Source: a virus. Taken from it: a DNA stretch of 19,487 bases. A program made the position numbers and the translations under genes. Below the pieces are notes generated by a model. It was not told the origin of the DNA. It was given only the letters and a program-made list of their open reading frames with translations, and made no database searches. This document shows positions 14,070 to 19,487 of this stretch, in pieces. Where the stretch lies: the UHGV virus genome UHGV-1272094; one strand, given 5' to 3'. How positions within the stretch are numbered: position 1 is the stretch's first letter; each line of letters starts with the position of its first letter.

Positions 14070-15545
14070 TTAGGAGCGCCAAAAAAAACCTGAAAACAAT
14101 ATAATAACAGGATAAATTTCAAGGCGACCAAGAATCATAGCTATGCACATTAAACATTTTGCAATGTCATTAAGCACTCCGAATGACGATGCAGTAGCCC
14201 CAAAACCTAATCCCATATTATTAATACATGCAGCCACTGTTGCAAATGATGTAAGAAAATCATATCCCATACCATTTAACACCAGTATAAAAAACACCGT
14301 GAAGAGAGTATAAAGAAAAAAGAAACTCCATACAGACCTCATTACACGATCTGTAACTATCTTCCCTCCTACATTTACACTCAACAACGCTCTGGGATGA
14401 GAAAGCTGATTTATCTCGTGTTTGCTTTGTTTGAAAAGTATAAGAAATCGAAGTGACTTAATTCCACCACAAGTTGAACCTATACATCCCCCAAAGAAAC
14501 TTGACAACAGCAAAAACACTATCGTGTGCGTGGGCCAACTTGCATAATCCTGCGTAGCTAAACCATTATCAGTGAGCATGGAGCTGGCAAGAAAAAACGA
14601 ATGAATAAAACTTCCATGCAAGTCATACATACCTATATGCCAGACCTGGAAAGAGGTAACAATGATCACCCCTAAGGCTATTAACAGAAAGAAACGAAGT
14701 TCAATATCTCTGATTAAAGGTTTTATCGTTTTCCTGCTAATAACAATATACCAAAGAGTGAAGTTGAAAGCCGATAGCAGGGAAAAAGAACGAGCCACCA
14801 GCTCAACCAAATAGTTATTAAAATATCCGATACTCTCGCTATGAGTTGAGAAACCACCAAGCGAAACTGTGGAAATCCCGTGACAAATAGCATCAAACAA
14901 AGGCATTCCTGCAAGTCTATAACAGACAATACAAGCAATACCTAATAAAGAATAAGTTATCCACAGTGTCCGTGACGTATCGGCCAGGCGGGGAGTGAGT
15001 TTGTCATCCTTAAATGGCCCCGGCATTTCTGACTGATAAAGCTTTGCACCACCAATACCCAATAATGGCAATACAGCAACCGCCAGAACAATAACTCCTA
15101 AACCACCTATAAAATTTAACTGTGACCGATAGTACAAATATGCCCGAGGTAATGAACTAACATCATCAATTACAGTTGCTCCTGTTGTTGTTATTCCAGA
15201 AACCCCTTCAAACAGAGCATCAATGAACGTTAAATTAAGTTCTGAGTCAATCCATAAAGGGAATGCACTAATAACAGAAAACAAAATCCAAAACATTACA
15301 ATTATAATAAACCCATCACGGGTACGTAATTGAATGCCAGATTTCTTAGTTGTATACCACGCTCCGCCACCAATGCAAAAAAATATAACGAAAGTTATAA
15401 AGAAAACGAACAGGCTTTTTTCTTTATAAAACAATGCTACAACCATTGGTGGCAACATTGAAAGACTATAGAGCCAAACCAGGAACCCACACATATGAGT
15501 AACAACTCTTACATGAGATGTATTCATATCTAAATATTCTTTCAA
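14070..15545 (-). CDS. trkG: TrkH/TrkG-family K+ uptake membrane protein (prophage cargo)
   Basis: Polytopic membrane protein with TrkH-family motifs (...FEGVSGITTTGATV..., GGxGG-type loops). Matches my recollection of E. coli TrkG, which is encoded in the Rac prophage. TTG start at 15545 has AAGGTGG 6 nt upstream; the ATG at 15527 gives 485 aa (MNTSHVRVV...). The gene is visibly AT-rich compared with its neighbours. Confidence 0.85.
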   Translation of the reverse strand: MKEYLDMNTSHVRVVTHMCGFLVWLYSLSMLPPMVVALFYKEKSLFVFFITFVIFFCIGGGAWYTTKKSGIQLRTRDGFIIIVMFWILFSVISAFPLWIDSELNLTFIDALFEGVSGITTTGATVIDDVSSLPRAYLYYRSQLNFIGGLGVIVLAVAVLPLLGIGGAKLYQSEMPGPFKDDKLTPRLADTSRTLWITYSLLGIACIVCYRLAGMPLFDAICHGISTVSLGGFSTHSESIGYFNNYLVELVARSFSLLSAFNFTLWYIVISRKTIKPLIRDIELRFFLLIALGVIIVTSFQVWHIGMYDLHGSFIHSFFLASSMLTDNGLATQDYASWPTHTIVFLLLSSFFGGCIGSTCGGIKSLRFLILFKQSKHEINQLSHPRALLSVNVGGKIVTDRVMRSVWSFFFLYTLFTVFFILVLNGMGYDFLTSFATVAACINNMGLGFGATASSFGVLNDIAKCLMCIAMILGRLEIYPVIILFSGFFWRS

Positions 15546-15664: not shown

Positions 15665-16129
15665 TTACTTTAAACACTGCTCGGTTATGTATTGCTGAGC
15701 ACCTTCAAGTTGGGCCTGCATCATTACCAGTCGTTCCCGGAGGGTGAAATAATCCCGTTCAGCGGTGTCTGCCAGTCGGGGGGAGGCTGCATTATCCACG
15801 CCGGAGGCGGTGGTGGCTTCACGCACTGACTGACAGACTGCTTTGATGTGCAACCGACGACGACCAGCGGCAACATCATCACGCAGAACATCATTTTCAG
15901 CTTTCGCATCAGCTAACTCCTTCGTGTATTTTGCATCGAGCGCAGCAACATCACGCTGACGCATCTGCATGTCAGTAATTGCCGCGTTCGCCAGCTTCAG
16001 TTCTCTGGCATTTTTGTCGCGCTGTTCTTTGTAGGCGATGGCGTTATCACGGTAATGATTAACACCCCATGACAGGCAGACGACGATGCAGATAACCAGA
16101 GCGGAGATAATCGCGGTTACTCTGTTCAT
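15665..16129 (-). CDS. Rz: Rz i-spanin
   Basis: [80 protein letters not shown]... is near-identical to lambda Rz as I recall it. Its ATG overlaps the endolysin stop as ATGA at 16126-16129. Confidence 0.9.
15724..15909 (-). CDS. Rz1: Rz1 o-spanin lipoprotein, embedded in Rz in the +1 frame
   Basis: [56 protein letters not shown]..., with lipobox VVGC and a Pro-rich tail, lying entirely inside Rz. Matches lambda Rz1 from memory. Confidence 0.85.
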
Positions 16130-16623
16130 TGCTGACCCCACAAACAGATTTCACGCTCAATCTCACGACGAGTCATGAGACCTTTCCATTGCTTACCGCC
16201 AGCATATGTCCAGCGACGTAGCTGATCACATGCGCCTTTGATATCGCCCTGGTTTATTTTGCGAAGAAGCGTCGATGTTCTGAAATTGCCAGCACCCACG
16301 TTGTAAACGAATGAGTAAAGAGCGCCGCGCGTTGTTTCCGGTATATCGACTTTGATGTACGGGTTAATTTGTCTGGCGACCGTGGCAAGGTCTTTATTCA
16401 AGAGTGTTTTGCATTCTGCTTTGGTATACGTTTTACCGAGCATGATGTCTTTTCCTGTATGCCCGTGACATACAGTCCATACACCAACAATATCTTTGTA
16501 TGGTATGTAGCTGACACCTTCCAGACCATCGTTACCACTTGGGCCAGTGATTAACACTGATGCTATAGCAATTGCTCCGCCACCAATAGCAGCAGCAACG
16601 ACTTTTCGTAATGATGGAGGCAT
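16126..16623 (-). CDS. R: SAR endolysin (lysozyme, phage P21 R-like)
   Basis: N-terminal signal-anchor-release segment [30 protein letters not shown]..., then a T4-lysozyme-like core. Closely resembles P21 R as I remember it. TAATG overlap with the holin stop at 16623. Confidence 0.85.
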
Positions 16624-16838
16624 TATTCACCTCTCGCAGCCTTGCGCTTATCTTCTTTAATCTTGAAATAAAGGTTTGTCAGGTACGTCAGCAGGCCAAA
16701 TACCAGACTACCCAGCACACCGATTGCAGCCCACTGTGACGGAGTTACTCTATCGAGCAACTGTAAAAACCAGTAGCCAGCACTGCCTGCGGAGGTGCCG
16801 TAGGCAATGCCTGTTGAAATTTTGTCCATGGATTTCAT
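16623..16838 (-). CDS. S: Pinholin (P21 S-like) with dual-start motif
   Basis: [71 protein letters not shown]. ATGs at 16836-16838 (MKSMDK) and 16827-16829 (MDK), with GGAGGTGAGG upstream. The ORF-track 5' extension to 16895 is not supported. Confidence 0.85.
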
Positions 16839-16940: not shown

Positions 16941-16964
16941 ATAAAAAGCTCGCCGTAGCGAGCT
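16941..16964 (-). terminator. Intrinsic-terminator-like hairpin between lipoprotein 1 and the holin gene
   Basis: Perfect 7-bp stem agctcgc/gcgagct (16947-16953 and 16958-16964) with cgta loop. On the minus strand it is followed by UUUUAU. Confidence 0.45.
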
Positions 16965-17089: not shown

Positions 17090-17485
17090 CTAACCTCGCA
17101 TGTCAAAGCCAGATTTCTGAAAATCTCTGTAGACTTCCGGATTGTTGAAGGCCGGAAATTTGGCTTTATGAGCTGCGGACTTTATCGCTTCGCAATAGGC
17201 TTTATCACCGTTACTGGTAGATATTTTTAACGCCGTGCCATCCTGAGAGAATTCCATATGCAACCTGCATTTTTTCCCTTTCCAGTTATGCGGCTCATCA
17301 AGTTTGGCATTAATTGCAGCTCTGATTCCCCGCGCTTGCGCCCCCCATTCATCCTGATCATCCCAGCGTCCTGAACTGCAACTACCTGTAGCAGTAGTTT
17401 TGTGGCAATCTGAAGGGTGTAAAGGTGTGCATCCCGCAACAAAACCGACCCAAAAAGTCAACATAACGATTTTCTTTAATCCCAC
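17090..17485 (-). CDS. Lipoprotein with TolA C-terminal (domain III)-like module, copy 1
   Basis: GTG start at 17483-17485 with GAGGAG 6 nt upstream. Signal peptide MGLKKIVMLTFWVGFVAGC with lipobox VAGC. C-terminal ...GIRAAINAKLDEPHNWKGKKCRLHMEFSQDGTALKISTSNGDKAYCEAIKSAAHKAKFPAFNNPEVYRDFQKSGFDM aligns with copy 2 and with the TolA C-terminal domain as I recall it. Confidence 0.7.
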   Translation of the reverse strand: MGLKKIVMLTFWVGFVAGCTPLHPSDCHKTTATGSCSSGRWDDQDEWGAQARGIRAAINAKLDEPHNWKGKKCRLHMEFSQDGTALKISTSNGDKAYCEAIKSAAHKAKFPAFNNPEVYRDFQKSGFDMRG

Positions 17486-17563
17486 TTCTTGCTCCTCAAT
17501 CCATTAAAATCTCAGCAATAGTAGTTGTTACGTCCGCCACTGGCTCAGAGCTGACTATCCGCT

Positions 17564-17592
17564 AAATTTAGCTCAGTGCCGTAGCTGTGTCA
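17564..17592 (-). promoter_or_regulatory. Candidate sigma70 promoter for lipoprotein 1
   Basis: Minus-strand -35 CTGACA (17587-17592), 17-bp spacer, -10 TAAATT (17564-17569). Confidence 0.3.
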
Positions 17593-17635
17593 GAACAAAC
17601 CTAAGCCGAAACCGTTTATTACAAAACAATAAATA

Positions 17636-18064
17636 TCAGGGTTTAAAATCCAGCACCCCATTTTGAAATACTTTATATACTTCCGGCGAAGGGGGGGCAG
17701 GTATATCAGCATTCTTTATCGCATTCATCGCTTCACGACATAAATCGAGGTCTCCACTTTCTCTTTTAACCTCCAGTAGAAGGCCATTCGGGGCCATATG
17801 CATTCTCAGTGTACACTCTTTTCCTGAATACTTACTCGCATCCCCGAACTGTTTTTCGATGGCGCTCTTGATTTGATGGGCATACAGACGGATATCCTCA
17901 CTAACATCAGAAGTACGTTCAGATGAACTCACATACTGTGTCTCTATTGCTTTATCGGAGTAATATGATGTACGGTCATGATAATTTGTCGATACAGCAT
18001 CAGTGCACCCGATAATAATCCCACTAATAATCAACGTAAGAATTGATGCGCTACGAAAACCCAT
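17636..18064 (-). CDS. Lipoprotein with TolA C-terminal (domain III)-like module, copy 2
   Basis: ATG at 18062-18064 with GAGGA 5 nt upstream. Signal peptide MGFRSASILTLIISGIIIGC with lipobox IIGC. C-terminal ...YAHQIKSAIEKQFGDASKYSGKECTLRMHMAPNGLLLEVKRESGDLDLCREAMNAIKNADIPAPPSPEVYKVFQNGVLDFKP resembles TolA domain III (recalled ...QIKSAIESKFYDASSYAGKTCTLRIKLAPDGMLLDIKPEGGDPALCQAALAAAKLAKIPKPPSQAVYEVFKNAPLDFKP). Confidence 0.75.
   Translation of the reverse strand: MGFRSASILTLIISGIIIGCTDAVSTNYHDRTSYYSDKAIETQYVSSSERTSDVSEDIRLYAHQIKSAIEKQFGDASKYSGKECTLRMHMAPNGLLLEVKRESGDLDLCREAMNAIKNADIPAPPSPEVYKVFQNGVLDFKP
17942..18036. repeat. Left copy of a perfect inverted repeat of at least 95 bp, inside the 5' coding region of lipoprotein 2
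   Basis: Plus 17942-18036 equals the reverse complement of 19393-19487 at every position checked by hand. Identity stops abruptly at 18037/19392. Confidence 0.9.
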
Positions 18065-18093: not shown

Positions 18094-18123
18094 ATTATAT
18101 ATACCGTTGTTTTGGACGCTCAA
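18094..18123 (-). promoter_or_regulatory. Candidate sigma70 promoter for lipoprotein 2
   Basis: Minus-strand -35 TTGAGC (18118-18123), 18-bp spacer, -10 TATAAT (18094-18099), about 30 nt upstream of the ATG. Confidence 0.35.
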
Positions 18124-18651
18124 ACAGCGAATCAGATCAAATAAAACGCACATTTGTTAACATTTACACAAAGTCTGCGTGGGATATTCTGAAAGAATAT
18201 CCATAATGTGGAGAGAATCTATTGAAGTGCATGGTGCCGGGTGCCTCCCGGTGAACAAAATGTTCGTGATACCTGTCGGCGACAGAAAAGGTTAATGGTA
18301 TCACCCCACCGCACAGGGGGATTCACCATGCAGGAGTTTTCTTAGCAAACTCACTGCGCGCCCGGCAACTCCCAACCACATAAAATGCGGAGTTTGTGGT
18401 ATTTATGCATATAACTCGCAGGAATTATCTTAAAAAACTGATGTCGATCCGGATTAAAAAGAAGCAGGTCATCATCAGATGACTGGAAAAAAGGAAAAAA
18501 AAAATACTCATCATACAGTTTTGATTGCAGGGATGAGCCTGCTATGCACAATATGCAGAATATAAGCAAGATAAAAATATGCAGGCATATTATTTCGGAT
18601 TTTGTTATTAACACAACCTTTTTAATAATCATTTGGCATACAATAAACCAG

Positions 18652-18680
18652 TCCAAAAAGAACCGCCTAAACAGGCGGTT
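18652..18680 (-). terminator. Intrinsic terminator (minus strand) in the Q-to-lipoprotein intergenic region
   Basis: Perfect 8-bp stem aaccgcct/aggcggtt (18661-18668 and 18673-18680) with aaac loop. On the minus strand it is followed by CUUUUUGG. Confidence 0.5.
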
Positions 18681-19000
18681 GGTCAATACAAAGGATGCTT
18701 CGTCTTTATTATAGTAATCTGAGGCGTCGGGTGTCTTGTATCAGACAACATATTGTCCCGCTAAACAGCGAATTACAAACCACCCTGCAATGATCTCTCA
18801 TCTCATTTTATATGAGTTGACGACATCAGGATAACGCATCATCAGCCCCTGCCAAGAAATATCAAAACTCCCGCCAGCAATGTGTTATCACAATATTGTA
18901 AAAAAAACACAGCACCGAAACTATAACTGGTCTCCGTTATAATTTGGAGCAGAAAGACCAGTTGCCCAACTAGCAGCATTCTCCCCTGCTTTCCTGACGT

Positions 19001-19028
19001 AAAAAAAACCGCATTAAGCGGTTTTTTT
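19001..19028. terminator. Bidirectional intrinsic terminator downstream of the Q-like gene (tR'-like)
   Basis: aaaaaaaa-ccgc-attaa-gcgg-ttttttt: a GC stem flanked by an A8 run and a T7 run, so it can terminate either strand. Lies about 80 nt past the Q-like stop at 19109. Confidence 0.6.
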
Positions 19029-19108
19029 ACGATGTCCATGTCTGCAATCCGCCTCGCGATACAGCTGTGCGAAGCATAGCAAAATTGAAGCAGTTTATAC
19101 GTAAGAAA

Positions 19109-19426
19109 TCAAGCCATTTTCTCAGCAAATGATTCACGCATGGGAATATATAGGGCATACTCAGCAACAGCTAACCAATTAGCAATCCGTTTTTCGCATG
19201 TGCTAAAACACCACTCTGGGTGTCCATCATTTAGCAATTCAGCCATTTTGCGCTTAGTCATCCCCCGCCCTTCATAGCGTTGCCGGAGAATGCAAATCAA
19301 TCCTGGATGCTCTGCCAGCACCTCACTTATGACTCGATCAATACATAACGCCTCTGCATCAGTACAATGCGCCAGCCAGCTCTTTTGCTTGCCGTTGATT
19401 ATTAGTGGGATTATTATCGGGTGCAC
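19109..19426 (-). CDS. Late antiterminator Q-like protein, 5' end possibly truncated or chimeric
   Basis: ...INGKQKSWLAHCTDAEALCIDRVISEVLAEHPGLICILRQRYEGRGMTKRKMAELLNDGHPEWCFSTCEKRIANWLAVAEYAL... has the layout I recall for the short Q family (as in quuD). Its first 11 codons (MHPIIIPLIIN) lie inside the inverted repeat and mirror the lipoprotein signal peptide. Location upstream of the lysis genes fits. Confidence 0.5.
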   Translation of the reverse strand: MHPIIIPLIINGKQKSWLAHCTDAEALCIDRVISEVLAEHPGLICILRQRYEGRGMTKRKMAELLNDGHPEWCFSTCEKRIANWLAVAEYALYIPMRESFAEKMA

Positions 19427-19487
19427 TGATGCTGTATCGACAAATTATCATGACCGTACATCATATTACTCCGATAAAGCAATAGAG
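19393..19487. repeat. Right copy of the inverted repeat, truncated by the window end and overlapping the Q-like ORF start
   Basis: Reverse complement of 17942-18036. On the plus strand it encodes ...PLIISGIIIGCTDAVSTNYHDRTSYYSDKAIE, the same lipoprotein signal-peptide and linker residues. Extent beyond 19487 is unknown. Confidence 0.9.

Follow-up and report, generated by a model that had tools for sequence, protein, structure and literature searches.

The virus genome UHGV-1272094, a 19,487-nucleotide stretch of DNA referred to here as the window, carries on its minus strand two tandem lipoprotein genes, copy 2 and copy 1, whose products both end in a domain with the fold of TolA domain III (TolAIII). 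In TolA itself, this domain forms the force-transducing tip of Tol-Pal and is the common entry handle of group A colicins and filamentous phages. The fold assignment for both copies is solid, based on profile, sequence and predicted-structure comparisons. Their function is more conjectural, and with a probability of roughly 45% we propose that they serve as unenergised decoys for Tol-dependent colicins and filamentous phages. The two open reading frames (ORFs) are:

18064..17636, minus strand: copy 2, a 142-residue lipoprotein ORF with TolA domain III; ATG start; GAGG Shine-Dalgarno sequence
17485..17090, minus strand: copy 1, a 131-residue lipoprotein ORF with a diverged TolA domain III; GTG start; GAGGAG Shine-Dalgarno sequence 6 nucleotides upstream

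Both products score well above the 25-bit cut-off of the Pfam TolA C-terminal family PF06519, with 82.6 bits for copy 2 (E 2e-23) and 54.6 bits for copy 1 (E 1e-14). When PDB sequences were searched with phmmer, residues 55-142 of copy 2 (E 5e-28) and residues 51-129 of copy 1 (E 5e-9) aligned with residues 334-421 of Escherichia coli TolA, to which they are 59.1% and 30.7% identical, respectively, in ungapped register. The C-terminal strings that the initial annotation had quoted, SPEVYKVFQNGVLDFKP for copy 2 against SQAVYEVFKNAPLDFKP for TolA, are reproduced exactly in the phmmer alignment. Its statement that the C-terminal domains of the two ORFs align with each other also holds, with 29% identity over 141 residues in the pairwise alignment (E 2e-18) and 28% identity within the domain. 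The AlphaFold (AF2) models reach predicted local distance difference test (pLDDT) values above 90 over the TolAIII domain, falling below 50 in the N-terminal tether, and both superimpose closely on solved TolA domain III structures. Foldseek placed the copy 2 model on 2x9a_B (root-mean-square deviation 0.6 Å, template modelling score 0.96) and the copy 1 model on 3qdp (1.0 Å and 0.93), and the top PDB matches were TolAIII only, with TonB C-termini scoring far lower. Fold and disulfide are thus common to E. coli TolAIII (PDB 1TOL, 2X9A, 3QDP/3QDR and 1S62) and both copies; the disulfide cysteines of TolA (C363-C388) are aligned and invariant in both families, the bond itself being predicted from sequence.

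The translated N-termini, MGFRSASILTLIISGIIIG before the lipobox cysteine in copy 2 and MGLKKIVMLTFWVGFVAG in the same position in copy 1, bear out the lipoprotein signal peptides that had been assigned to both ORFs. Using the pattern [LVI][ASTVI][GAS]C, we found IIGC in copy 2 and VAGC in copy 1, each following a charged n-region and a hydrophobic core. The two proteins are divided as follows:

18005..18064, minus strand: copy 2 signal peptide and lipobox IIG-C, residues 1-20 (Cys20 codon at 18007..18005; Thr at +2; lipobox rule)
17906..18004, minus strand: copy 2 tether, predicted disordered, residues 21-53 (AF2 pLDDT below 50 at residues 19-50)
17639..17905, minus strand: copy 2 TolAIII domain, residues 54-142 (Cys84-Cys109 equivalent to TolA C363-C388; beta3 edge GVLDFKP)
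17429..17485, minus strand: copy 1 signal peptide and lipobox VAG-C, residues 1-19 (Thr at +2; lipobox rule)
17351..17428, minus strand: copy 1 Cys-rich tether TPLHPSDCHKTTATGSCSSGRWDDQDE (Cys27 and Cys36; nearly invariant between genera in the alignment)
17093..17350, minus strand: copy 1 TolAIII domain, residues 46-131 (Cys73-Cys98; beta3 edge SGFDMRG)

Residue +2 is Thr in both copies rather than the Lol-avoidance Asp, so that the E. coli +2 rule predicts Lol-dependent transfer, and both proteins are probably lipidated and located in the outer membrane. For copy 1, RefSeq places the start at an internal ATG (Met8); because this strips off the charged n-region, the GTG is the better start model. 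Compared with E. coli TolA, both copies lack the transmembrane anchor of domain I (with its SHLS motif and TolQR coupling) as well as the long helical domain II, which makes coupling to the TolQR motor impossible, and they are predicted to be lipid-anchored to the opposite membrane. The ‘tether’ of copy 1 is not a floppy linker. In the alignment, which reaches from E. coli to Serratia, its motif PLHPSxCHKTTAxGSCSSGRWDDQDEWG hardly varies and includes two additional cysteines, and the AF2 model has a small hairpin at residues 29-37, at low confidence. We found no informative match to the motif among PDB sequences, and a resemblance to colicin TolB boxes (SG-W...WG), offered as an idea only, is superficial.

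Two ligand sites of TolAIII have been defined in the literature. The N1 domain of g3p, colicin N and the TolB N-terminus each add a strand to beta3 (residues 415-420) and contact the first helix (334-349), with beta-propensity weighing more than sequence in the strand addition (PMC4339652; PMC7391070), and the substitutions D418P or K420P abolish binding of ColN-T, g3p-N1 and TolB alike and give a tol phenotype (PMC4339652). Colicin A instead adds to beta2 (375-380) and makes cation-pi contacts with K368, K379 and K396 (PMC3365938). At these positions the copies compare with TolA as follows:

beta3 strand (415-421): TolA APLDFKP; copy 2 GVLDFKP; copy 1 SGFDMRG (proline-free, D kept, K replaced by R)
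First helix (334-352): TolA as reference; copy 2 12 of 19 residues identical, Y340 kept; copy 1 5 of 19 identical, Y340 replaced by Q
beta2 box (375-380): TolA LLDIKP; copy 2 LLEVKR; copy 1 ALKIST
K368/K379/K396: TolA K/K/K; copy 2 H/K/K; copy 1 E/S/H

The beta3 edge is therefore retained in both, the D418/K420-type positions being D/K in copy 2 and D/R in copy 1, and the strand being free of proline. Copy 2, in which the LDFKP edge strand and the larger part of both the first helix and the colicin A box are preserved, along with two of the three lysines contacted by colicin A, appears to be a fairly faithful replica of the E. coli TolAIII hub. Copy 1 retains the fold and the strand pattern, with a beta3 edge that would be usable, but little else; it is part of an older, diverged lineage whose ligand range probably differs. 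This amends the initial annotation, which had described both as anchored copies of TolA domain III: judged by these residues, they are not equivalent, copy 2 replicating the TolAIII binding surfaces and copy 1 lacking the colicin A contacts and most of those of the helix.

Of 5426 complete E. coli genomes, 772 cover at least 80% of the 1.4-kb segment that holds the two genes, many at 100% identity. The order copy 2, copy 1, holin gene is kept in all 80 IMG/VR loci at 97-100% identity, one of which (L012) has insertions between the genes of the trio, and both lipoprotein ORFs are intact in 78 of them; the antiterminator side, the endolysin and Rz vary among the same loci. The trio is a mosaic module. 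The IMG/VR scan yielded near-identical copies only; a copy 2 type of 66% identity stands alone between Q and the holin gene in prophages of the enterohaemorrhagic E. coli type.

Relatives of copy 1 extend well beyond prophages. At 87-88% identity they are found on about 600 plasmids, among them pO157, which has the gene beside toxB and the hok/psiA/psiB region. Another is an IncK2/Z plasmid, also conjugative, where the gene lies directly downstream of the relaxase genes nikA-nikB (locus L004, 7001-7432). We rejected an equation of the IncI-complex gene with yggA because yggA is on the other side of oriT; the I-complex paper on transposon-directed insertion-site sequencing makes no mention of the plasmid copy 1 homologue. 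A third type of short TolAIII gene (35% identity) occurs on about 300 Klebsiella plasmids, and in the one examined, a conjugative IncF plasmid, it forms a pair with a thioredoxin-fold gene (locus L005, 5217-6246). Chromosomal relatives with 67-89% identity are present in Enterobacter, Citrobacter, Klebsiella, Raoultella, Leclercia, Lelliottia, Pantoea, Kluyvera, Yokenella and Serratia, at isolated non-phage sites. These sites are surrounded by ordinary genes of metabolism and regulation, and their positions show no synteny from one genus to another. The neighbours of the Enterobacter orthologue were not shared in 28 other genomes, leading us to reject simple vertical inheritance.

A profile search of 1.8 billion cluster representatives returned 560 relatives. 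The best 150 of these include 95 short proteins, 56 to 60 of which have a lipobox depending on strictness; Asp at +2 occurs in none of the 56 with a strictly called lipobox, and a few short relatives carry ordinary signal peptides. The nearest relative of the copy 2 domain is E. coli TolA itself, and that of the copy 1 domain is found among the other short lipoproteins. Nonsynonymous to synonymous rate ratios (dN/dS) are 0.05-0.19 for copy 1 and 0.36 overall for copy 2, where the tether is the fastest-evolving part (0.49) and the domain has 0.25. Both copies are functional genes, and the copy 1 family, widespread in enterobacteria, plasmids and prophages and under strong purifying selection, is not specifically a phage function. 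The conservation of the module amid varying flanks, together with the plasmid and chromosomal relatives, points to a self-contained function that is not part of lysis, and the isolated chromosomal sites indicate that a single gene is sufficient, with no need for the lysis cassette.

Neither gene is a genuine tolA. The NCBIfam TolA matches cover only profile positions 265-387, and the NF007065 scores of the two copies (107.8 and 53.7) are far under the cut-off of 213. By the RefSeq annotation, both belong to a lambdoid prophage and not to the tol-pal operon, with the antiterminator-side genes on one side and the holin gene on the other. In copy 2, domain III is enough by itself to exceed the TIGR02794 cut-off (75.6 versus 59.45), which is evidently why the RefSeq Prokaryotic Genome Annotation Pipeline (PGAP) labels it a tolA pseudogene, ‘incomplete, missing N-terminus’. 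This label is an annotation artefact and the gene is a complete lipoprotein ORF. The pseudogene label of copy 2 and the internal ATG start of copy 1 look systematic and would affect hundreds of genomes (window 17636-18064, minus strand; locus L001, 9737-9997). Taken at face value, the PGAP label and the TIGR02794 score on domain III would suggest a truncated TolA, and hence that the two genes are non-functional remnants, tolA fragments taken up through illegitimate recombination. This is essentially excluded: both ORFs are complete with Shine-Dalgarno sequence, signal peptide and lipobox, they are intact in nearly all of the viral loci and recur in hundreds of genomes, their dN/dS values are well below 1, and the short TolAIII lipoproteins form about 60 distinct clusters at 50% identity.

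According to the decoy proposal, each lipoprotein would hang a TolA domain III on a tether of 25-35 residues into the outer periplasm. Tol-dependent invaders must dock on the beta3 edge and first helix of this domain; among them are group A colicins and related bacteriocins with their translocation domains, TolB loaded with colicin, and filamentous phages with the N1 domain of g3p. On their way in they would meet a TolAIII tethered to the inner face of the outer membrane before any other. Captured by a decoy that is unable to transmit TolQR force, they would stall during import, and tolerance to Tol-dependent agents would be gained by the lysogen or the host of the plasmid, or by the bacterium itself where the copy is chromosomal. 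Such a decoy could work without collapsing Tol-Pal, given the affinity of TolAIII for ColN-T and g3p-N1 (about 1-12 µM) compared with that for TolB (about 40 µM) (PMC4339652). The structure best matching copy 2, PDB 2x9a, is that of g3p of the I-pilus phage IF1 bound to TolAIII. Pili are the primary receptors of TolA-dependent filamentous phages, and the presence of relatives on pilus-encoding plasmids makes the decoy proposal more plausible. Colicin A, cloacin DF13, klebicins and bacteriocin 28b are Tol-dependent bacteriocins of genera that carry homologues, which points the same way. The option raised in the initial annotation that the proteins help lysis is disfavoured by the relatives on conjugative plasmids and at non-phage chromosomal sites.

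An E. coli locus with the identical sequence is annotated in RefSeq, and on that basis the window belongs to a lambdoid prophage read on the minus strand. DUF1367, DUF1364 and DUF1133, on the antiterminator side, are followed by a stretch of about 1 kb that has no convincing ORFs, and then by copy 2, copy 1 and the lysis genes. After Rz come trkG and then the terminase, portal and head genes. The surrounding features are:

18175..18361, minus strand: Rfam STnc100 RNA element directly upstream of the module, full-length, 86.6 bits against a gathering score of 47
18094..18123, minus strand: promoter-like site upstream of copy 2, TTGAGC-18-TATAAT, 10 of 12 positions, consensus match only
17565..17593, minus strand: weaker promoter-like site upstream of copy 1, CTGACA-17-TAAATT, 9 of 12 positions
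16947..16964, minus strand: intrinsic-terminator-like hairpin and U-run after the stop of copy 1 and before the start of the holin gene, -13 kcal/mol, z -2.93
16838..16623, minus strand: holin gene (essD-type, 71 residues; RefSeq annotation), 97-100% identical in all 80 viral loci
16623..16126, minus strand: endolysin gene (rrrD type; RefSeq annotation)
16141..15665, minus strand: Rz gene (RefSeq annotation)

The predicted terminator hairpin between copy 1 and the holin gene is convincing. It would matter only for transcription that is not modified by Q, in keeping with a module expressed in the lysogen while the lysis genes are shielded from that expression, and from these sequence signals the module may be expressed there as a moron. 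The lipoprotein genes are the first ORFs downstream of the STnc100 element, which itself lies downstream of the antiterminator-side genes. In prophages of this type the element may serve as leader RNA of the late promoter, and if so the lipoprotein genes would head the late operon. The gene-poor stretch of about 1 kb between DUF1133 and STnc100 holds further strong hairpin and T-run elements at 18999-19030 and 18661-18680 and weak, sub-threshold Rfam matches (AgrB, isrK). As a possible source of expression data we considered EDL933_2012, which is induced 32-fold by ciprofloxacin and is linked to TolA in the paper concerned, and did not use it because its homology is unconfirmed; the supplement of that paper names it only ‘tail fiber protein’. 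The 71-residue holin is itself named ‘Phage tail fiber protein’ in the mEp460_ev081 record (locus L002, 3892-4107), and this shared name makes the statement on TolA and EDL933_2012 in the transcriptome paper unreliable.

Elsewhere in the window, the potassium transporter gene trkG, in full length, and what is left of ynaK lie between the lysis cassette and the terminase genes (14070-15545, minus strand), a placement as in the Rac prophage that marks this prophage as a Rac/Qin/DLP12-like mosaic. A perfect 95-nucleotide inverted repeat joins 17942-18036 to 19393-19487, so that the window's final 95 bases reverse-complement the 5' part of copy 2; it breaks the DUF1133 gene at 19392/19393 with the microhomology CGTT. 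The DUF1133 gene is intact in the reference chromosome, which has no such repeat, and the junction of DUF1133 and repeat was spanned in none of the 5426 complete E. coli genomes. The repeat is most likely a contig-end fold-back or an assembly chimera and not biology.

Several observations weigh against the decoy proposal. Copy 1 lacks all three of the lysines that make cation-pi contacts with colicin A, as well as most of the helix contacts. The position of the genes after STnc100, near the apparent head of the late operon, means that their main expression could be lytic, and in lytic growth exclusion or colicin tolerance matters little. A plausible sigma70 promoter had been noted for each gene, and consensus-like hexamers do lie upstream of both, but the support for promoters is weak and such sites are frequent here, with 16 in this AT-rich stretch compared with 9.7 +/- 2.9 in shuffles. 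When 50,697 deposited phage genomes were searched by tblastn, mEp460_ev081 alone gave a homologue, suggesting that the carriers may be mostly defective prophages. We found no paper on these genes in full-text literature searches and no match to a PADLOC defence model; the sole PHROG match is 5772, ‘unknown function’, and the family is otherwise catalogued by domain name. An outer-membrane-tethered TolAIII beside TolB-Pal could, moreover, equally titrate TolB.

This last possibility underlies the main rival to the decoy proposal, in which the tethered domain would bind the TolB N-terminus and act as a dominant negative against TolA, loosening the outer membrane and causing leakiness or hypervesiculation, thereby aiding progeny release in lytic growth and elsewhere tuning vesicle production or envelope remodelling. 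We regard Tol-Pal modulation of this kind as rather unlikely. The TolB site on beta3 is kept, mutations that break the TolA-TolB contact give a tol phenotype (PMC4339652), and overexpressed periplasmic TolAIII disturbs Tol-dependent functions so that periplasmic proteins leak, according to a passage in PMC6195910 that cites Wan & Baneyx 1998. The genes also lie directly upstream of those for holin, endolysin and Rz and downstream of STnc100, making Q-dependent late transcription likely, and the holin gene always travels with both of them. However, there is a terminator between the lipoprotein genes and the holin gene, the spanins in the same cassette already handle the outer membrane, and the affinity of TolA for TolB is low. 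Homologues are, in addition, under strong purifying selection on plasmids and at chromosomal sites without lysis genes, where a constitutive tol phenotype would be costly.

A further explanation, which we consider unlikely, is that the TolAIII fold serves as an adaptor for a different ligand: the copy 1 lineage would dock another periplasmic or outer-membrane protein in a housekeeping envelope role, and mobile elements would have picked up the gene. Consistent with this, the fold is common to TonB C-termini, where partners are bound by strand addition, and copy 2 has a weak match to Pfam TonB_2; copy 1 shares only 31% identity with TolAIII and differs from it in most of the side chains that contact ligands, its near-invariant tether motif suggests a second functional element, and its relatives are chromosomal in many genera in contexts that do not look mobile. 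Copy 2, on the other hand, is a close replica of E. coli TolAIII including known ligand-contact residues, the lack of synteny of the chromosomal sites looks accessory rather than core housekeeping, and the fact that prophages and at least three plasmid types have recruited such genes repeatedly points to a benefit in conflicts involving mobile elements.

For the decoy proposal, the nearest functional precedent is exported soluble TolAIII, which is likewise a free periplasmic TolAIII uncoupled from TolQR. That protein is artificial, overexpressed and soluble, whereas the copies described here are natural, carry predicted lipid tethers, come in two diverged versions and are selected on mobile elements. 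Export of TolAIII is also said to have given colicin tolerance (work of Levengood-Freyermuth et al. from 1993). Llp of T5, Cor of phi80 and N15, and TraT of the F plasmid are also small outer-membrane (inner leaflet) lipoproteins of mobile elements, and these block the entry of competitors; they have no sequence relationship to our copies, and they bind and inactivate an outer-membrane receptor (FhuA, OmpA), whereas our copies would imitate a periplasmic co-receptor. In filamentous phage infection, periplasmic g3p occupies TolA and renders cells colicin-tolerant and phage-resistant. This exclusion targets the same g3p-TolAIII interface to block Tol-dependent entry and is the mirror image of a decoy: there a surplus of ligand saturates the real receptor, with tol-like side effects, whereas here a surplus of false receptor would absorb the ligand. 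The genomic setting resembles that of the lambdoid morons between Q and S (stx; bor and lom lie elsewhere in lambda), which are likewise accessory genes between the antiterminator region and the holin gene with a candidate promoter and terminator, the cargo here being a host-protein mimic and not a toxin or serum-resistance factor.

In its broadest form, which we put forward tentatively, the decoy proposal would make these proteins the first co-receptor mimics known to have arisen naturally in conflicts among bacteria. As tethered and unenergised TolA tips, they would confer on prophages, on conjugative plasmids and on certain chromosomes of enterobacteria a broad tolerance, both to colicins and bacteriocins that depend on Tol and to filamentous phages specific for pili. 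Each of the two tandem copies would then serve a different set of ligands. The debris of lysed cells might also neutralise colicins for kin, since prophage induction and colicin release are both driven by the SOS response.

About one in seven of the complete E. coli genomes carries the tandem module, which is uncharacterised and partly labelled as a pseudogene. If the proteins modulate Tol-Pal, they would be a mobile-element tool for controlling outer-membrane stability and vesiculation. If they are decoys, they would represent a new exclusion principle, in which a periplasmic co-receptor is imitated rather than a surface receptor blocked, and would explain part of the natural variation in sensitivity to colicins and filamentous phages. 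As decoys they would also be relevant to colicin- and bacteriocin-based antimicrobials and to phage display hosts, and would offer a simple genetic means of gauging the amount of free TolAIII that Tol-Pal can tolerate.

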